This document shows positions 9,654 through 18,948 of a DNA stretch of 41,512 nt, piece by piece. The notes under the pieces were generated by a model. The model did no database searches. It was not told where the DNA came from and was given only the letters and a program-made list of their open reading frames with translations. This DNA comes from a virus, in UHGV virus genome UHGV-0155266. One strand, given 5' to 3'. Every line of letters begins with the position of its first letter. The first letter of the stretch is position 1. The position numbers and the translations under genes were made by a program.

Positions 9654-10144
9654 TCATGAGTCTGTTAAATGACGTTCAGAAATTCATTGAAGCTCATCCG
9701 GGGTGTACTTCCGGAGACATTGCAGATGCTTTTGCTGGTTACTCACGGCAGCGCGTTCTGCAGTCAGCAAGCAAGTTACGTCAGAGTGGGCGTGTGGCTC
9801 ACCGTTGTGAAGGGGATACACGCAGACATTTCCCGCGCCTGACTGAGAGAGCGCAGGAGCCGGAACCACAACCAGTTCGTGAAACCAGACCTGTGCGCAA
9901 TTTCTATGTCGGCACTAACGACCCCCGGGTGATTTTGTGCCTGACCCGCCAGGCTGAAGAACTGGAGTCCAGGGGCTTATACCGTCGTGCTGCAACGGTG
10001 TGGATGGCGGCATTCCGTGAAAGCCACTCCCAGCCAGAACGAAATAATTTTCTGGCGCGTCGTGAACGGTGTTTACGGAAAAGCAACAAGCGGGCTGCAT
10101 CAGGTGAAGAGTGGTATCTGTCAGGGAATTACGTGGGGGCTTAA
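9650..10144 (+). CDS. early protein, possible PerC/ANR-type regulator
   Basis: 164-aa ORF translationally coupled to the replication gene; the AEELESRGLYRRAATVWMAAF segment resembles the PerC-family motif as recalled. Inference only. Confidence 0.5.
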   Translation: MIMSLLNDVQKFIEAHPGCTSGDIADAFAGYSRQRVLQSASKLRQSGRVAHRCEGDTRRHFPRLTERAQEPEPQPVRETRPVRNFYVGTNDPRVILCLTRQAEELESRGLYRRAATVWMAAFRESHSQPERNNFLARRERCLRKSNKRAASGEEWYLSGNYVGA

Positions 10145-10797
10145 TGAGTAATAAATATTGCCGGGCGCTGGTGGAGCTGCGGAACAAACCAGCCCATGAA
10201 CTGAAGGAAGTGGGCGATCAGTGGCGCACGCCGGATAACATTTTCTGGGGAATTAACACCCTGTTTGGTCCGTTTGTTCTGGATCTGTTCACTGACGGTG
10301 ATAACGCCAAATGTGCCGCGTATTACACGGCGGAAGACAACGCGCTGGCACATGACTGGTCAGAACGTCTTGCGGAGCTTAAAGGTGCTGCCTTTGGTAA
10401 TCCCCCATACAGCCGCGCCAGTCAGCATGAGGGGCAATACATCACCGGCATGCGTTACATCATGAAGCATGCCAGTGCCATGCGTGATAAAGGCGGTCGC
10501 TATGTTTTCCTGATCAAAGCTGCCACCAGCGAAGTGTGGTGGCCGGAAGATGCAGATCATATTGCTTTTATTCGCGGGCGTATTGGTTTTGAACTGCCTG
10601 CCTGGTTTATCCCGAAGGATGAGAAGCAGGTGCCGACAGGCGCTTTCTTCGCTGGTGCTATTGCTGTTTTCGACAAGACCTGGAAGGGACCGGCAATCAG
10701 CTACATCGGGCGCGATGAACTTGAGGCATGTGGTGAGGCCTTTCTGGCGCAGGTTCGCCAGCAGGCGGAAAAACTGGTCAGGGAGATGGCTGCATGA
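10144..10797 (+). CDS. phage N6-adenine DNA methyltransferase (Dam-like)
   Basis: ATG at 10144 overlaps the upstream stop (TAATG). Contains GNPPY, matching the (D/N)PPY catalytic motif of N6-adenine methyltransferases. Confidence 0.8.
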   Translation: MSNKYCRALVELRNKPAHELKEVGDQWRTPDNIFWGINTLFGPFVLDLFTDGDNAKCAAYYTAEDNALAHDWSERLAELKGAAFGNPPYSRASQHEGQYITGMRYIMKHASAMRDKGGRYVFLIKAATSEVWWPEDADHIAFIRGRIGFELPAWFIPKDEKQVPTGAFFAGAIAVFDKTWKGPAISYIGRDELEACGEAFLAQVRQQAEKLVREMAA

Positions 10798-13345: not shown

Positions 13346-14098
13346 ATGAACCTTGAAGCCTTACCAAAATATTACTCCCCAAAATCTCCAAAATTGAGTG
13401 ATGACGCACCGGCGACAGGCTCGGGTGGTTTAACAATTACAGATGTGATGGCTGCGCAGGGGATGGTGCAGTCGAAAGCACCACTGGGTTTTGCCTTATT
13501 CCTGGCAAAAGTTGGTGTTCAGGATCCTCAGTTTGCGATTGAAGGTCTGCTCAATTACGCGATGGCACTGGATAACCCGACATTGAACAAATTGAGTGAA
13601 GAAACCCGGCTACAGATCATTCCTTACCTTGTGAATTTTGCCTTTGCTGATTATTCCAGATCTGCGGCAAGTAAGGCTCGCTGTGAGCATTGTGCTGGTA
13701 CTGGATTTCATAATGTATTGCGCGAAGTGGTGAAACACTCCAGAAACGGGGAATCTGTTATCAAGGAAGAGTGGGTGAAGGAACTATGTCAGCATTGTCA
13801 TGGTAAGGGAGAAGTCAGCACAGCGTGCAGAGGATGTAAGGGTAAAGGTATTGTCCTGGATGAAAAAAGAACCCGGCTTCATGGCACGCCTGTTTATAAG
13901 ATTTGTGGGCGTTGCAATGGAAACCGATTTAGCCGTTTACCAACCACACTGGCACGACGTCATGTCCAGAATCTGGTAACAGACCTGACGGATTATCAGT
14001 GGTACAAAGGATATGCAGACGTCATTGATAAACTGGTTACAAAGTGCTGGCAGGAAGAAGCATATGCTGAAGCGCAATTGAGAAAAGTGACAAGATAA
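13346..14098 (+). CDS. late-gene antitermination protein Q-like
   Basis: 250-aa ORF at the end of the early region with paired-Cys zinc-binding clusters (CEHCAGTG, CQHCHGKG, CRGCKGKG, CGRCNG); lysis and late genes follow. Confidence 0.65.
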   Translation: MNLEALPKYYSPKSPKLSDDAPATGSGGLTITDVMAAQGMVQSKAPLGFALFLAKVGVQDPQFAIEGLLNYAMALDNPTLNKLSEETRLQIIPYLVNFAFADYSRSAASKARCEHCAGTGFHNVLREVVKHSRNGESVIKEEWVKELCQHCHGKGEVSTACRGCKGKGIVLDEKRTRLHGTPVYKICGRCNGNRFSRLPTTLARRHVQNLVTDLTDYQWYKGYADVIDKLVTKCWQEEAYAEAQLRKVTR

Positions 14099-14252
14099 AT
14101 GATTTTCAACAAAGATAGCGACATGATGCTTGCATTTTTCAAAAAACATGGATAAGATTTTCTCAACGATGGGCTTTGTGTGTCTACCGTTGATAAGTCC
14201 AAAAAACCGCAGCCGAGCGGGTTAAATTATTTTTTCTTACACGGGGATATGG

Positions 14253-14783
14253 ATGTTATACCGAGATCTTCTGCCTATTTTCTCAGAAAGAACCATATTT
14301 GAAGCTCCTGAGGCTGAAAGAATACTTCGTGAGCAATATTCTATCATTGCCCCCTCTCCTGTAATTCAGGAGATTTATTATGGATTGGTAGGTGATGACA
14401 GATTTCAGAAGCTTTATGGGGATCTTGATATTGACCAAATTGAATGGAAATTGATTGAACTTCCCACTAAAAACTTTTTAACTATCGGGGATAATGCTAC
14501 TTGCCCTGATTTTTTGCATGAGGTCGTTGAAGATTACATGACCCGTAAAGGTGATGTATTTATGGATGATGAAATAAAAGCGCATTGGTGTAATTTTGGC
14601 ACATGGTGCGAACCACCATTTTTTATAGATCGAGCTTTGCTGAAAAGTAATACAACAGGGCTCCATTTAATGGAAGGGCATACAAGAGTTGGAACCCTGT
14701 TAGGGGCAGTTAAGTATAACTTCGTTAAGCTTGCTAATACTCATAAAATTTATTATGCGCAAGCAAAAGAATGTATTAAATAA
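14253..14783 (+). CDS. hypothetical protein (post-Q moron, AT-rich)
   Basis: 176-aa ORF in the slot directly downstream of Q, followed by its own terminator; AT-rich relative to neighbours; no recognisable motif. Confidence 0.6.
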   Translation: MLYRDLLPIFSERTIFEAPEAERILREQYSIIAPSPVIQEIYYGLVGDDRFQKLYGDLDIDQIEWKLIELPTKNFLTIGDNATCPDFLHEVVEDYMTRKGDVFMDDEIKAHWCNFGTWCEPPFFIDRALLKSNTTGLHLMEGHTRVGTLLGAVKYNFVKLANTHKIYYAQAKECIK

Positions 14784-14820
14784 GTTGAGTGAAATTACTG
14801 TTGGTTTTTTAACAATACTT

Positions 14821-14843
14821 ACCGCGTTCTCGCGGTTTTTTTA
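14821..14843 (+). terminator. rho-independent terminator
   Basis: ACCGCG-TTCT-CGCGGT hairpin followed by TTTTTTT. Confidence 0.6.
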
Positions 14844-14940
14844 TAAATTAAACATTGGTGCAGTACGGTAAACACGCTGGTGGTCGTGAATACTGACTGT
14901 TTATCTTGCTGGCTTTTTAGACAAGAGTTATTGGTATGTC

Positions 14941-15159
14941 ATGTTAACCAGAAGGGAAAAAGACATGCTAAAACAGCAAGATATGACAGAAACGGCGAAA
15001 GTTGTTTTTAATGAATTAAGCATCGAACCGGCAACAGTCGGGGAGATTGCACAAAACACATACCTTTCACGCGAACGCTGTCAGTTAATACTGACCCAGC
15101 TGGTTATGGCGGGGCTGGCAGATTACCAGTTCGGCTGTTACAGACGCCTTCAGCAATGA
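14941..15159 (+). CDS. small hypothetical protein, possible winged-HTH
   Basis: 72-aa ORF with weak RBS (alternative ATG at 14965 has AAGGGA); segment ATVGEIAQNTYLSRERCQLILTQLVMAGLADY is HTH-like. Confidence 0.4.
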   Translation: MLTRREKDMLKQQDMTETAKVVFNELSIEPATVGEIAQNTYLSRERCQLILTQLVMAGLADYQFGCYRRLQQ

Positions 15160-15308
15160 AGGGCTTTTAATTTGTGAAAATGGGCGGCTGGTGGGTGTTG
15201 GTAGCACCTGCCAGCCATTCGCTCATGCTTACTGGTCACAAGCGAACCATGGCCCACTGCTTTAGCGCAAAAGCAGAGTGAGCCTACCAGAGTTACGCTT
15301 ACTGATCC

Positions 15309-16361
15309 ATGAAAAATACTGTAAAAACAAACAGTGTTGATTTAATCAACGCTGATTGCCTGCATTTTATTCAGTCCCTGCCTGATGATTCCATTGACCT
15401 GATTGTTACCGATCCGCCGTACTTCAAGGTGAAACCCAACGGTTGGGACAATCAGTGGAAAGGGGACGAAGATTACCTTAAGTGGCTGGACCACTGTCTG
15501 GCCCAGTTCTGGCGGGTGTTGAAACCTGCCGGAAGCCTTTACCTGTTCTGTGGGCATCGCCTGGCATCTGATATTGAGATCATGATGCGTGAACGTTTCA
15601 ACGTGCTTAACCATATCATCTGGGCGAAGCCGTCCGGACGTTGGAATGGGTGTAATAAAGAAAGTCTGCGCGCATATTTTCCTGCCACAGAGCGCGTTCT
15701 GTTTGCTGAACATTACCAGGGGCCATATCGCGGCAAAAGTGACGGCTATGCGGCAAAAGAAAGGGAACTCAAACAGCACATAATGGCACCGCTGATATCG
15801 TATTTCAGGGATGCTCGTGCCGAACTGGGTATAACGGCAAAACAAATTGCCGAAGCCACAGGTAAGAAAAATATGGTTTCCCACTGGTTTGGTGCCAGTC
15901 AGTGGCAGTTGCCGAATGAGGCTGACTACCGGAAGTTACAGGCACTGTTTTCCCGTATAGCGGCAGAGAAGTTTCAGGAACAACAACTGGAACAACCACA
16001 CCACCAGTTGGTGGCATCTTATGATTCACTGAATCGCAAATATTCTGAATTGCTGGATGAGTTTAAATCTCTCCGGCGCTATTTCTCCGTATCAGTCTCC
16101 GTGCCTTATACCGATGTCTGGATGCATAAACCCGTTCAGTTCTACCCGGGTAAACATCCGTGTGAGAAACCGGCGGATATGCTCAGGCAAATAATCAATG
16201 CCAGTAGTCGACCCGGCGATCTGGTTGCTGATTTCTTTATGGGATCCGGTTCCACAATAAAAGCAGCAATGGCGCTGGGGCGTCGGGCGTTAGGTGTTGA
16301 GCTTGAGACAGAGCGGTTTAATCAGACGGTGAAAGAGGTAAGTGAACTGGTGGGGAAATAA
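15309..16361 (+). CDS. DNA methyltransferase (amino-methyltransferase, motif IV before motif I)
   Basis: DPPY near the N-terminus (IVTDPPYF) and an FxGxG-like SAM motif near the C-terminus (DFFMGSGST); no adjacent endonuclease gene. Confidence 0.85.
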   Translation: MKNTVKTNSVDLINADCLHFIQSLPDDSIDLIVTDPPYFKVKPNGWDNQWKGDEDYLKWLDHCLAQFWRVLKPAGSLYLFCGHRLASDIEIMMRERFNVLNHIIWAKPSGRWNGCNKESLRAYFPATERVLFAEHYQGPYRGKSDGYAAKERELKQHIMAPLISYFRDARAELGITAKQIAEATGKKNMVSHWFGASQWQLPNEADYRKLQALFSRIAAEKFQEQQLEQPHHQLVASYDSLNRKYSELLDEFKSLRRYFSVSVSVPYTDVWMHKPVQFYPGKHPCEKPADMLRQIINASSRPGDLVADFFMGSGSTIKAAMALGRRALGVELETERFNQTVKEVSELVGK

Positions 16362-16368
16362 TTCTGGT

Positions 16369-16390
16369 GGCCACGTTGCGTGGCCTTTTT
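16369..16390 (+). terminator. rho-independent terminator
   Basis: GGCCACG-TTG-CGTGGCC hairpin followed by TTTTT; it lies inside track ORF 16342-16773, so the holin start must be downstream. Confidence 0.6.
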
Positions 16391-16437
16391 ATTTCCAACA
16401 CAGCACCCGCAAATATCGCGAGGTGAGAGATGACGAA

Positions 16438-16773
16438 ATGCCTCATAACCCAAATACCTGGCCGGACTGGCTGGAGTTGTTTCAGAGCTGGTGGCGTGGA
16501 GACACACCGCTGGGTGCAGTGATTATGTCGATCGTTATGGCTGGTTTGCGCATCGCCTATTTTGGCGGTGGTGGTGGCTGGAAGCGAAAAACGCTCGAGA
16601 TTTTGCTCTGTGGCGCTCTGACGCTGACCTTTGCATCCGCTCTTGAGTATGTCGGATGGCCTAAATCGCTTTCTGTTGCCATTGGTGGTGGCGTGGGGCT
16701 GATCGGTGTCGATGCTATTCGTGGGGCTGCAATGCGAGTAATCGGTAACAAGTTTGGTGGCTCTAAGGAGTAA
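16438..16773 (+). CDS. holin (putative)
   Basis: 111-aa ORF immediately upstream of the endolysin with hydrophobic and Gly-rich segments; start chosen at the first ATG after the terminator. Confidence 0.6.
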   Translation: MPHNPNTWPDWLELFQSWWRGDTPLGAVIMSIVMAGLRIAYFGGGGGWKRKTLEILLCGALTLTFASALEYVGWPKSLSVAIGGGVGLIGVDAIRGAAMRVIGNKFGGSKE

Positions 16774-17792: not shown

Positions 17793-18419
17793 TCAGTTGT
17801 CAAATGAATATACGTTAAAGGTATATGTCGACATAATTTCACCAAGTACCTCAATACATACACTTTTTTTATGAAAATTACTGGGAAATGAACTTAGCTC
17901 CTCAAGACATTGCACATAAGTGCTGATATCACTTGCATCACGTTCAAGGAATTTCACTTGACCAAAAGAAGGAGTTTTAATCTTGGTTCTTTGCTGGATT
18001 ATATGGATAAAGTGTGTAGTTGGTGAAACTATTACTCTTGAAATATCGGAAATGATGTCTTCTTGAACTTGCCGATAAAGTAAATCCTTTGGATAATGGT
18101 GTTTTATCTCGATGGTTGCAACATTGCCATTATGTTCAGACGTTAATATCGACTGGTTATAAAGTGATATGTCAACAGCGCCGATACCGAGTTTTGGATG
18201 CTCACTTAAAGCAGTTAGTGTGCTGATTTGATTGAGTATAACAACTAACTCATCACGTATTTGTGTTTCATGTTTGCGATTGTAGAAGTAGCCATTCAGT
18301 TCATTTAACTTTTTATGCATCCTATCGTGACTAATTGCTTCGATCAGTAAATCCTGAATCATACTTTTCTCTAGGTAATCCGAACGGTTGTAAGTGACAG
18401 TATTGTGCTGGCATGTCAT
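17793..18419 (-). CDS. hypothetical protein (208 aa), downstream gene of a minus-strand cassette
   Basis: AT-rich ORF opposite to the flanking lysis and packaging genes; no recognisable motif; weak RBS, so the start is uncertain. Confidence 0.6.
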   Translation of the reverse strand: MTCQHNTVTYNRSDYLEKSMIQDLLIEAISHDRMHKKLNELNGYFYNRKHETQIRDELVVILNQISTLTALSEHPKLGIGAVDISLYNQSILTSEHNGNVATIEIKHHYPKDLLYRQVQEDIISDISRVIVSPTTHFIHIIQQRTKIKTPSFGQVKFLERDASDISTYVQCLEELSSFPSNFHKKSVCIEVLGEIMSTYTFNVYSFDN

Positions 18420-18462
18420 TAATATGTAAAGGTATTGTGAATGCCAGAAAGATAACGAAGTA

Positions 18463-18798
18463 TCATCGATAGAAAAACTTTACAGCCCACTCGTAAACAG
18501 CTTTGTAAATCGGTTCATGGTAAATACTATCGATACTATTCAGATATGCGATCATCGCCTCCACAGTTGTAGTGGTTGTTTCTAATATTTCGATTATTGC
18601 AGGGCGGTCATCATCTTCATCGAAGTATTCGAACAGCAGTACAGGTTTACCATGCAATTCAGCATCTGAGACTCTAAGGTTACAACTACCGCTCAACTCA
18701 AAGTGAATTTTGTAATTACCTTCTACAGAATGGCCTACGGGGAAAAAGTATAGGGTGTCATCTTTGTTCAAAAGCCATGCCCATTCATAACTATTCAT
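18463..18798 (-). CDS. hypothetical acidic protein (111 aa), upstream gene of the minus-strand cassette
   Basis: ATG at 18798 preceded by AGGAG with a 7-nt spacer; the track ORF begins 6 codons earlier; contains an acidic patch (EYFDEDDDRPAIIEILE). Confidence 0.6.
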   Translation of the reverse strand: MNSYEWAWLLNKDDTLYFFPVGHSVEGNYKIHFELSGSCNLRVSDAELHGKPVLLFEYFDEDDDRPAIIEILETTTTTVEAMIAYLNSIDSIYHEPIYKAVYEWAVKFFYR

Positions 18799-18948
18799 TT
18801 GTGAACTCCTGTTCATTGAGTTTCAACAACTATCAACTACATCCAGCGAAGCATAAAAGATCGTTTATGGCAAAACCGGAATGGAGTGCGATTCGATTCT
18901 GAGAAGGGTGCCACGTATCGTACGCGAACCATCCAAGAGGATTATGCA

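Follow-up and report, generated by a model that had tools for sequence, protein, structure and literature searches.

Organization of the late region

The analyzed window is a 41,512-nt stretch of a viral genome (UHGV-0155266). In its late region the genes are arranged in the order Q (13346-14098), a 176-aa moron (14253-14783), a small ORF, a methyltransferase gene, holin, endolysin and Rz (Table 1). An earlier sequence-only reading had placed the methyltransferase between the Q moron and the lysis genes, with a 72-aa HTH-like ORF about 150 bp upstream and no endonuclease, and had noted a second methyltransferase in the same phage; our analysis agrees with this layout. In particular, the distance between the end of the small ORF and the methyltransferase ATG is 149 bp, the second methyltransferase is recognized by both Pfam and NCBIfam profiles, and no endonuclease family was detected in the neighboring ORFs by Pfam, PHROGs or PADLOC. 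Nor did PADLOC assign the small ORF, the 176-aa ORF or any of the minus-strand ORFs located after Rz to a defense system. No tRNA or tmRNA of the kind found in Stx phages was detected in the gap between the small ORF and the methyltransferase gene. In SfV, the methyltransferase is present without the 176-aa neighbor.

Table 1. Coordinates of the features of the locus and of the early-region methyltransferase gene.
Feature	Coordinates	Strand	Evidence
Early-region Dam-type N6-adenine methyltransferase	10111..10797	+	Pfam Dam PF05869 (1.2e-45); NCBIfam TIGR01712 phage_N6A_met (255 bits, cutoff 97)
Intrinsic terminator 5' of the small ORF (6-bp GC-rich stem, T7)	14821..14843	+	Terminator scan
Small winged-helix protein gene, 64 aa (72 aa from ATG 14941)	14965..15159	+	Homologues, dN/dS, AlphaFold2
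Conserved structured RNA	15174..15276	-	Covariance model R2, covariation, folding
Predicted extended -10-like element TGgTAGGCT	15281..15289	-	Sequence inference
Weak -35-like hexamer TGGATC	15304..15309	-	3/6 matches, 17-nt spacer
M.EcoGII-family methyltransferase	15309..16361	+	Pfam, identity to characterized relatives
Intrinsic terminator between methyltransferase and holin S (7-bp stem with 6 GC pairs, T-run)	16369..16395	+	Terminator scan

The first of the two late-region terminators lies upstream of the small ORF, and the late transcript has to read through it. Related loci with the small ORF have equivalent terminators 300-345 nt 5' of the RNA element, and a terminator at the position matching 16369-16395 is annotated in SfV and N15. 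The promoter scan found no sigma-70-like plus-strand promoter in the gap, nor anywhere between the two terminators. The locus is best explained as a three-part late-region module (small ORF, RNA and methyltransferase) of a lambdoid, SfV/mEp460-like phage.

The late methyltransferase

The 350-aa product of the methyltransferase gene matches the Pfam domain N6_N4_Mtase (PF01555) over residues 29-341 (E=3.5e-42). The motif order given by the sequence-only reading, DPPY first and FxGxG last, was verified: catalytic motif IV (DPPY, residues 35-38) is N-terminal and SAM-binding motif I (FFMGSGS, residues 309-315) is C-terminal, which is the beta-class order. The PDB relatives of the protein are M.RsrI, M.MboIIA and CcrM, and PADLOC assigns it to MTase_II (5.9e-152). 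[quoted passage not shown] Table S1 of PMC11551740, may be wrong. Like other members of the M.EcoGII family, it is prophage-borne, with no cognate endonuclease; its gene is situated between Q and the lysis genes. By sequence, the late enzyme is a beta-class N6-adenine DNA methyltransferase of the M.EcoGII family, and as such it is not new. The same methyltransferase DNA is present in 2373 of 5426 complete E. coli genomes (~44%).

M.EcoGII and M.EcoGI are enzymes from prophages of E. coli O104:H4 (Murray et al. 2018, PMC5778455). M.EcoGII, a characterized non-specific adenine methyltransferase from lambdoid prophages, is silent in the lysogen and deleterious once expressed (PMC5778455). An anti-restriction role of an orphan late-region methyltransferase, as the sequence-only reading had proposed, is the accepted view for this family (PMC5778455). 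Anc291 and SUPREM, both assayed on DNA and RNA (PMC11551740), were reported, like M.EcoGII, to be largely sequence-independent adenine methyltransferases (PMC5778455; PMC11551740). By extrapolation from these 70-89% identical relatives, the enzyme studied here is probably non-specific as well. It differs from M.EcoGII in 19% of residues, and in 23% of those of the target-recognition domain, so that a sequence-specific or inactive enzyme might be imagined; but the relatives bracketing it are all largely sequence-independent, the ORF is full-length and both DPPY and FxGxG are intact, and we regard this alternative as improbable.

The two proteins are similar in length (349 aa in M.EcoGII), in the beta-class order, in the central helical target-recognition domain and in their occurrence in lambdoid prophages. 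They differ in that the allele studied here belongs to the 95-99% identity band among E. coli genomes, while the Stx-phage type belongs to the 80-90% band. The methyltransferase itself is a routine finding, being a relative of a commercial enzyme. The published work on M.EcoGII (PMC5778455) mentions neither the upstream small ORF nor the RNA element described below; in phage 1720a-02, which encodes a very similar enzyme according to the same paper, this RNA element is located immediately upstream of the methyltransferase gene.

The small winged-helix protein

The small ORF as proposed earlier (14941-15159) encodes 72 aa, while most homologues begin at the internal ATG at 14965, giving 64 aa. 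Its median dN/dS of 0.08 indicates strong purifying selection, and its counterparts are orf47 of SfV, gp52 of mEp460 and PHROG 331. The AlphaFold2 model (pLDDT 86.9, pTM 0.71) is a canonical winged helix-turn-helix (H1-S1-H2-H3-wing), with the H1-S1-H2-H3-S2-W-S3 order of elements that characterizes the fold. Foldseek aligns the model with the IclR N-terminal domain (TM 0.84), the mRNA-binding winged helix of SelB (TM 0.77) and generic winged-helix domains, with all E-values above 1e-3, so that these matches support the fold class only. Pfam matches are all below threshold (DprA_WH, 17.2 bits with cutoff 22.9; TrmB, 16.4 bits with cutoff 25.6). The small ORF is a real gene, and its product is a winged helix-turn-helix protein.

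The small ORF was previously seen as one half of a pair with the methyltransferase. This linkage is confirmed, and tight, in enterobacterial lambdoid prophages, where 23 of 25 loci have both genes at a constant distance of 142-154 nt, but it fails more widely, as no homologue of the small protein is detectable in 23 of the 39 non-redundant related loci with both RNA and methyltransferase. Given its absence from most related loci, the small protein is, as far as homology detection can tell, dispensable for the module, and it may be a clade-specific accessory.

The same reading likened the pair to a controller protein and its methyltransferase; in such a model, the small HTH factor would regulate a methyltransferase promoter in the 150-bp gap. 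Controller (C) proteins have an Xre-type HTH_3 domain and a length of ~80-100 aa, with C-boxes upstream of the C gene and a co-regulated endonuclease. The likeness to such systems as C.PvuII and C.AhdI is that the gene of a small protein with a DNA-binding fold is located just 5' of the methyltransferase gene. The conservation of this protein, its linkage to the methyltransferase at a constant distance in enterobacterial prophages and the presence of weakly similar 75-aa proteins of the N15 gp51 type upstream of the same module in N15-like phages speak for a controller, but the differences are more numerous. The protein is a winged helix, with sub-threshold Pfam matches only and none to the Xre-type HTH_3. 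The only inverted repeat upstream of its ORF consists of two 14-nt arms, 79% complementary and separated by 23 nt, which is not a convincing C-box-like operator, and the remaining repeats found in the search are helices of the RNA. Moreover, there is neither an endonuclease nor a detectable plus-strand promoter to be controlled, the gap is filled by a putative structured RNA gene, and most related modules lack the protein. The small protein does not belong to the C-protein family, and a C-protein-like control of the methyltransferase is very unlikely here.

A conserved structured RNA in the intergenic region

The 150-bp gap is 78-87% identical to the corresponding sequences from other genera, compared to 37-52% at four-fold degenerate sites of the adjacent methyltransferase gene; its conservation is far above that at synonymous sites of the flanking genes. 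A 35-aa ORF at 15174-15281, considered as a leader peptide, does not explain this conservation: the conserved ATG is missing in 11 of 43 sequences, in 10 of 43 the frame is interrupted by a stop within 12 codons, and the residues are not conserved.

Comparative analysis shows a conserved structure on the minus strand, supported by covariation, which had escaped the sequence-only reading. The minus-strand covariance model (R2) matches positions 15169-15280 with 120 bits. The RNA starts with a 5' hairpin, P4' (15257-15276), followed by a three-way junction formed by P1' (15181-15185/15252-15256), P2' (15186-15197/15205-15216) and P3' (15218-15227/15237-15246). P1' is followed by a U-tract (the complement of 15177-15180), conserved across loci. 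In the alignment of 51 matches (50 distinct rows), which was fitted by the covariance model and is therefore biased towards the modelled structure, as are all pair counts given here, 96.6% of cells are paired, compared to 40-47% in slid controls, and compensatory changes occur in 24 of 28 pairs; none of 500 shuffles reached the observed values. The single-sequence minimum free energy fold coincides with the consensus fold (-44.3 kcal/mol, z=-3.98). Alignment of distant leaders by MAFFT only yielded no consensus fold, and a structure-aware alignment was required.

No Rfam 15 family matched the element at E<=1 on either strand, be it the version from the window or those from N15, ST2-1pr, PhAER-1 and VHML. 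The literature searched, mostly from non-subscription journals, contained no description of an RNA at this position. The gap is likely to be an RNA gene of ~100 nt transcribed from the opposite strand (approximately from 15276 to 15177), whose complement would comprise positions -33 to -132 of the methyltransferase mRNA leader.

Strand of the functional RNA

Covariation alone cannot select the strand, since every helix is mirrored on the complementary one. As an alternative to the minus-strand RNA, the plus strand could be functional as a cis-regulatory mRNA leader, that is, a riboswitch, a protein-binding operator or a translation-inhibition structure similar to that of Mu com-mom. The late mRNA necessarily includes this sequence, the element always ends at a start codon, and in Vibrio and Aeromonas loci it is followed by a Com-family ORF (PF10122, 26-34 bits, cutoff 22.9). 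The plus-strand model also shows covariation (85% paired cells, compensatory changes in 32 of 35 pairs). Moreover, two pairs in the upper part of P2 in the studied sequence are G-U on the plus strand and become A-C mismatches on the minus strand, contrary to the minus-strand reading.

The overall distribution of wobble pairs is the opposite. Several pairs are G-U on the minus strand in most sequences (e.g. 38/50, 29/50, 22/50), and these favor the minus strand, as they correspond to A-C mismatches on the plus strand; in the plus-strand alignment, there are 72 A-C cells versus 27 G-U cells. Of 43 sequences, 37 give a better fold when reverse-complemented (p=2e-7). The sole helix specific to the plus strand, P5, is paired in 69% of cells and is missed by RNAalifold, and its conserved half is better explained as the -10 element considered below. 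Accordingly, the five-helix plus-strand leader (model R1) was dropped as the primary reading. Sequestration of the methyltransferase start by the leader was also rejected, the effect on its accessibility being marginal (unpaired probability 0.42 versus 0.48). The promoter-like element at its fixed distance and the U-tract, both considered below, likewise place the RNA on the minus strand. We consider a functional plus-strand leader unlikely, and the minus-strand RNA is retained in what follows.

Predicted promoter and 3' end

The comparison of loci reveals a conserved promoter-like extended -10 element (TGnTAGGCT) at a fixed distance from the RNA. A TAnnnT hexamer is observed 5-7 nt before P4' in all 43 non-redundant loci, and TG in positions -15/-14 in 28 of 43; these positions are the most invariant in the whole region. 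In the window, the hexamer is read from the complement of 15281-15286 and the TG from that of 15288-15289, and the predicted start of the RNA is at about 15274-15276. The hexamer itself, TAGGCT, agrees with the -10 consensus in 3 of 6 positions, and the generic promoter scan made no call there. The -35-like hexamer, weak in enterobacteria, contains a GATC site and adjoins the methyltransferase start codon; its counterpart in Vibrio-type loci, TTGTCA or ATGTCA, overlaps the start codon of the Com-like ORF. At the other end, the stem that precedes the U-tract closes a multi-branch structure and is not the hairpin of a canonical terminator, which makes intrinsic termination here uncertain. Both the promoter and the 3' end of the minus-strand RNA are predictions from these patterns.

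Distribution and downstream genes

Phages with the element include those of enterobacteria, N15-like phages and phages of Vibrio and Aeromonas. Of 80 N15-type methyltransferase loci, 73 have it upstream of the gene, as do 53 of 80 VHML-type loci. A scan based on the RNA pattern, and not on genes, identified directly downstream of it 46 M.EcoGII-like methyltransferases, 3 C5-cytosine methyltransferases, 6 Mom-family genes (PF25680) and about 5 holins. In all cases the element ends at a start codon, its position being fixed whatever the first late ORF encodes, and 45 of 47 loci have a terminator in the 450 nt preceding the element. The Vibrio and Aeromonas loci contain, between the element and the methyltransferase gene, an ORF for a zinc ribbon of the Com family; in ST2-1pr and PhAER-1 it encodes a Cys4 zinc ribbon (PF10122, 26.2 and 34.5 bits, respectively, cutoff 22.9). 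In the examined phage records the element is either unannotated or covered by a "hypothetical protein" call. Among the non-coding elements of these prophages, it ranks with the most conserved.

In Stx2a phages, the module of the small ORF, the RNA and the methyltransferase is located between Q and the tRNA-stx2AB genes, so that the late transcript that produces the toxin has to traverse this DNA.

Proposed function

Enzymes of the M.EcoGII family methylate adenine in practically any context, stay silent in lysogens and do harm if made constitutively. The methyltransferase gene is located downstream of Q, bracketed by intrinsic terminators, and has no promoter of its own, which suggests that synthesis of the enzyme is confined to late infection, when Q-modified RNA polymerase reads through; the progeny DNA would then be hypermethylated against restriction. 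In lysogens, the minus-strand RNA may guard this first, toxic late gene, both by convergent transcription across its translation start and by pairing with the leader of late transcripts that leak past the upstream terminators, and strong Q-dependent late transcription would override the guard. The target of the small winged-helix protein might, speculatively, be the antisense promoter or the RNA itself. As the RNA overlaps neither the ribosome-binding site nor the AUG of the methyltransferase gene, pairing could not simply occlude the start of translation. There are precedents for both aspects of this scheme: STnc6030 is a prophage antisense RNA against late genes (PMC7067206), and Mu com-mom is a toxic DNA-modification gene under RNA-level control (PMC6483171). 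This scheme as a whole, with its antisense guard, is our best explanation of the locus, and we give it an even chance of being correct.

The three-way junction and the conservation of unpaired nucleotides exceed what plain antisense pairing needs and may point to a protein partner or to action in trans. Indeed, the minus-strand RNA could be real and yet act mainly in trans, on host or phage targets in lysogens, rather than guard its own methyltransferase; one option is that it excludes superinfecting related phages by pairing with the leader of their late mRNA, another that it serves as a protein-binding or decoy RNA. This would also agree with the translation start being outside the RNA, and prophage RNAs of this kind exist: STnc6030 of BTP1, antisense to late genes, excludes a superinfecting phage (PMC7067206), and the prophage sRNAs AgvB and AsxR, encoded in the same general region, act in trans (PMC4104026). 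However, the RNA keeps a constant position with respect to the start codon of the first late ORF, regardless of the product of that ORF, and its predicted promoter overlaps this start codon, so that action in cis is the simplest assumption. We find a mainly trans-acting RNA rather doubtful.

A broader reading is that of an undescribed, widespread class of structured antisense RNAs that act as gatekeepers of the first late gene in gamma-proteobacterial temperate phages, this gene encoding a non-specific adenine methyltransferase, a C5-cytosine methyltransferase, a Mom enzyme or a holin, with the winged-helix and Com proteins maybe being partners. We propose it tentatively, with less than even confidence. 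In this reading, the same module would, in some Stx2 phages, be part of the transcript with stx2.

The main value of the locus is the unannotated RNA in front of the methyltransferase, an RNA that precedes three unrelated families of toxic DNA-modification enzymes, or a holin. If it gates the expression of late genes or of the methyltransferase, this would account for the silence of a lethal non-specific methyltransferase in lysogens and would add a layer of control to lysis and toxin expression. It would also yield a directly testable model, comprising one promoter, one RNA and one small protein.

Comparison with known RNA systems

In Mu, the zinc-finger protein Com activates translation of the toxic DNA-modification gene mom (PMC6483171). 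As proposed for our locus, a late, toxic, anti-restriction DNA-modification gene is placed under additional RNA-level control, and genes of the Mom (PF25680) and Com (PF10122) families are found directly behind the same element in related phages. The differences are that the window contains no Com ORF and that the RNA described here is an opposite-strand three-way junction, while that of Mu is a translation-inhibition hairpin. Homology of the element to the Mu leader was rejected, as the covariance model finds no match in the com-mom region of Mu.

Like the RNA proposed here, the anti-sRNAs AgvB and AsxR of EHEC prophages (Tree et al. 2014, PMC4104026) are encoded in the moron region that follows Q, in a direction convergent to PR' transcription. 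However, they are 51-60 nt long, have simple terminators and are located 5' of the small ORF rather than between it and the methyltransferase gene; size and position thus rule out that the RNA is one of them.

The other relevant group includes lambda OOP/aQ, P22 sar, BTP1 STnc6030 and the antisense RNAs of type I toxin-antitoxin systems. As in these cases, a small RNA would be convergent to a gene that does harm when expressed at the wrong time, with its own promoter of the constitutive type (a predicted one in our case) in the late or regulatory region of a temperate phage. Unlike them, the RNA described here overlaps neither the coding region nor the ribosome-binding site, and it has no sequence or Rfam relationship to any of them. 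Its architecture is also far more conserved, and it is common to lambdoid, N15-like, Vibrio and Aeromonas phages and to four unrelated types of downstream genes.

Gene order and the methyltransferase

The phage is lambdoid, its close relatives being SfV, mEp460 and phage cdtI. The gene order proposed from the sequence alone, with a DPPY-first, FxGxG-last methyltransferase between a moron and the lysis genes and a small HTH-like ORF about 150 bp upstream, was borne out by the annotation (see the table), the motifs being DPPY in residues 35-38 and FFMGSGS in residues 309-315, that is, the beta-class order. Equally, the phage encodes two different methyltransferases, and the ORFs neighbouring the one studied here gave no match to a nuclease or defence family.

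Features of the methyltransferase locus and of the minus-strand RNA
Feature	Position	Strand	Remark
Second methyltransferase	10111-10797		phage Dam type
Q antiterminator	13346-14098		Pfam Antiterm
176-aa ORF	14253-14783		PHROG 8867
Strong intrinsic terminator	14821-14843		before small ORF
Small ORF	14941/14965-15159	plus	149-bp gap to methyltransferase
U-tract	complement of 15177-15180	minus	
Three-way junction, P2'	15205-15216 with 15186-15197	minus	
Three-way junction, P3'	15237-15246 with 15218-15227	minus	
Three-way junction, P1'	15252-15256 with 15181-15185	minus	
Hairpin P4'	15257-15276	minus	
Predicted RNA start	about 15274-15276	minus	
Extended -10, TGgTAGGCT	complement of 15281-15289	minus	
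-35-like TGGATC	complement of 15304-15309	minus	abuts methyltransferase ATG 15309-15311
Methyltransferase, 350 aa	15309-16361	plus	Pfam N6_N4_Mtase, 3.5e-42
Second strong terminator	16369-16395		after methyltransferase
Holin S, endolysin, Rz			downstream of terminator 16369-16395

The methyltransferase is 98-99% identical to SfV orf48 and mEp460 gp53, and 81% identical (90% positives over 349 residues) to M.EcoGII, whose sequence was taken from Supplementary Table S1 of PMC11551740; its identity to the reconstructed ancestor Anc291 and to SUPREM, both assayed on DNA and RNA (PMC11551740), is 89% and 70%, respectively. M.EcoGII is a prophage enzyme whose adenine methylation is independent of sequence context; the lysogen does not express it, and constitutive expression is deleterious (Murray et al., PMC5778455). 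Because of this relationship and the lack of a neighbouring nuclease or defence family, the enzyme is classified as orphan and probably anti-restriction, in agreement with both the sequence-only reading and the accepted reading for the M.EcoGII family. As a protein, it is an ordinary new member of a known enzyme type. Of 5426 complete E. coli genomes, 2373 contain the DNA of 14850-16400, and the matches form two identity bands, 95-99% and 80-90%.

Several features of the surrounding region were also recorded. After Q come a promoter-like site at about 14130-14165 (TTGCAT and TAAGAT with a 17-nt spacer) and, at about 14208-14240, a short hairpin with a T-run that looks like a terminator; judging by sequence, the two resemble a pR'-tR' unit. 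The 176-aa ORF has no match in Pfam, PADLOC or NCBIfam and behaves as a moron, since it occurs in mEp460 and Ayreon and is missing from SfV. In the intergenic stretch 14784-14940, at a position equivalent to that of the convergent anti-sRNA genes (AgvB/AsxR type) of EHEC prophages (Tree et al. 2014, PMC4104026), the scan called a terminator on both strands (14821-14836), and Rfam yielded no match. The holin ORF (16342-16773) is open from GTG 16342, overlapping the methyltransferase gene end and the terminator; the likely start is ATG 16438 (MPHNPNTW...), past the terminator. Directly after Rz, the minus strand carries two ORFs, of 208 and 117 aa (17793-18816; PHROGs 12494 and 14397), which have no Pfam or PADLOC match and are probably morons.

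The small winged-helix protein

The small ORF encodes a PHROG 331 protein, some NCBI copies of which are labelled 'TrmB family transcriptional regulator'; in most homologues the internal Met is the start, so that the protein has 63-64 aa. Between genera, replacements are few although synonymous sites are close to saturation (median dN/dS 0.08), a substitution pattern that marks it as a real gene. The AlphaFold2 model is a confident canonical winged helix (pLDDT 86.9), for which the Foldseek matches, none with E <1e-3, are all to winged-helix domains of a generic kind (the IclR N-terminal domain, methyltransferase dimerisation domains, the SelB RNA-binding WH).

Among 25 loci from species-representative genomes, retrieved with the small protein as the query, an M.EcoGII-like gene follows the ORF after 142-154 nt in 23; with this near-constant spacing, the linkage is real in enterobacterial lambdoid prophages. 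Contigs labelled Bacillus MAG and Chryseobacterium sp. (among loci L003, L012 and L027) carry the enterobacterial module with a small ORF 79-92% identical to that of the window, probably due to contamination or mis-binning, and the Micrarchaeota match (L027) amounts to no more than weak wHTH similarity in part of a larger ORF.

The presence of the small protein was also counted in 39 non-redundant loci having the downstream module. It is directly adjacent in 11; five loci of the N15/PY54 type have a weakly similar 75-aa gp51-type protein (E 0.002-0.3) about 135 nt upstream, beyond a promoter and a terminator; and 23 have no detectable homologue, which makes the protein an accessory and not an obligatory controller. 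Thus, while the methyltransferase part of the sequence-only reading was correct, though ordinary, its likening of the locus to a controller/methyltransferase pair holds only in part: a real wHTH gene is linked to the methyltransferase, but it does not belong to the C-protein family, as there is no Xre-type HTH, no C-box-like repeat and no endonuclease.

A conserved structured RNA in the gap

Since the spacing is constant across loci, the gap between the two genes was aligned; it turned out to vary less than the small ORF, its invariant blocks being separated by variable patches that show no 3-nt period. Its identity to other genera is 78-87%, compared with 37-52% for 4-fold degenerate third positions in the neighbouring methyltransferase gene. 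Moreover, the RNA element precedes methyltransferase homologues of only 48-64% identity (N15, PY54, Serratia OS31, Hafnia yong2, Vibrio ST2-1pr, VHML, Aeromonas PhAER-1), where the helix sequences are entirely different and pairing is kept. In IMG/VR, the covariance model places it before 73/80 N15-type and 53/80 VHML-type methyltransferase loci. The phage records examined either leave it without annotation or place a 'hypothetical protein' over it; Rfam, searched on both strands with all element versions, gave no match, and no account of it turned up in the searchable literature, a 2025 review of phage sRNAs among it. This is apparently a widely distributed, undescribed structured RNA gene, and it is the element, not the methyltransferase, that deserves follow-up.

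The element could be read from either strand. A plus-strand, five-helix leader (P1-P5) has 85% of cells paired and compensatory changes in 32/35 pairs. However, the core helices on this strand contain 72 A-C cells versus 27 G-U cells, the reverse complement folds better in 37/43 sequences (mean -45.1 vs -37.3 kcal/mol, p = 2e-7), and the plus-strand-only helix P5 is weak (69% paired) and not recovered by RNAalifold. The invariant half of P5, RAGCYTAYCA, reads TGRTARGCT on the minus strand, which makes it an extended -10 element; in all 43 non-redundant loci, P4' is preceded at a distance of 5-7 nt by a TAnnnT hexamer, with TG at -15/-14 in 28 of them, and a U-tract follows the last helix of the minus-strand RNA.

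The minus-strand model R2 (helices P1'-P4') detects all architectures, with 96.6% of cells paired (40-47% with partners slid) and compensatory changes in 24/28 pairs, values reached in 0/500 shuffles, the pair-count alignments being model-fitted. P3' becomes a continuous 10-bp helix with every pair covarying, and several positions are G-U in 38/50, 29/50 and 22/50 sequences, which favours the minus strand, as these are mismatches on the plus strand. The minus-strand sequence of the window, taken alone, folds into the R2 structure, which makes up 24% of the ensemble (-44.3 kcal/mol, z = -3.98), although the upper part of P2 here favours the plus strand. Given the wobble and energy asymmetry, the failing P5 and the better minus-strand fit, the leader assignment was dropped.

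In the window, the predicted minus-strand RNA ends about 18 nt from the small-ORF stop codon and is complementary to positions -33 to -132 in the leader of the methyltransferase mRNA. A GATC (Dam) site, 15304-15307, lies inside the -35-like hexamer, just before the methyltransferase ATG; CTGATCYATG is kept in most enterobacterial copies, and GATC also occurs nearby in VHML and PhAER-1. As far as these sites indicate, adenine methylation could feed back on the putative antisense promoter.

Genes behind the element

The promoter-proximal end of the element always adjoins a plus-strand start codon, either that of the methyltransferase or, in Vibrio and Aeromonas phages, that of a Com-family zinc-ribbon ORF (PF10122, 36-62 aa; loci L112, L113, L121-L135) followed by the methyltransferase. 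When IMG/VR was scanned for an RNA sequence pattern instead of a gene, the model confirmed the element in 64 of the 80 loci listed; the genes behind it include 46 M.EcoGII-like methyltransferases, three C5-cytosine methyltransferases (PF00145, 1.5e-41), six Mom-family genes (PF25680, 7e-71) and about five holins directly downstream (contigs L279, L347, L358, L282, L349 and L295 exemplify the last three types). The C5-methyltransferase and Mom genes start with ATGACC, a sequence that overlaps TGGTCA, the -35-like hexamer of the putative minus-strand promoter. Of 47 non-redundant loci, 45 have an intrinsic terminator no more than 450 nt upstream of the element, either right next to it or on the far side of the small ORF. 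The element is therefore a marker for the beginning of the late/lysis transcription unit and precedes whichever toxic gene is first in it.

In Stx2a phage 1447 (AP012536; 2653-5683), the small ORF, RNA element and methyltransferase lie between Q on one side and the ileZ-argN-argO tRNA genes and stx2AB on the other, hence on the path of the toxin-producing late transcript. In the P2-like Aeromonas phage phiO18P, a homologous methyltransferase is found between holin and muramidase, 22 nt after the holin; this locus has no RNA element, so the methyltransferase keeps to the lysis cluster even without it. N15 gene 52 (AF064539; 2501-3589) is annotated from an internal start at locus position 2735; as homology begins at 2501, directly after the element, the annotation is about 78 codons short.

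Proposed mechanism

These comparisons establish to which family the enzyme belongs, that the RNA structure is conserved and on which strand it lies, that a promoter-like element overlaps the start codon, and that terminators bracket the module. The most likely scheme is the following. Only Q-modified polymerase would transcribe the methyltransferase, and only late in infection; the enzyme would then hypermethylate progeny DNA. In lysogens, the minus-strand promoter would fire convergently across the translation start, and its RNA would pair with the leader of transcripts leaking past the terminators, keeping the lethal enzyme (or Mom, or holin) silent until massive late transcription overrides the antisense block. 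The weak points of this scheme are that the -10 and -35 are weak and the 3' end is non-canonical, that the RNA does not reach the ribosome-binding site, and that predicted start-site accessibility is hardly altered. So well conserved a structure points to a protein partner or to a function of the RNA in trans; a candidate for the partner is the wHTH protein, which could act on either the antisense promoter or the RNA.

Prophage antisense RNA directed against late genes has a precedent in STnc6030 (PMC7067206), and RNA-level control of a toxic modification gene in Mu com-mom (PMC6483171); by analogy with the latter, the Com-family ORF of Vibrio and Aeromonas phages suggests Mu-like translational activation.
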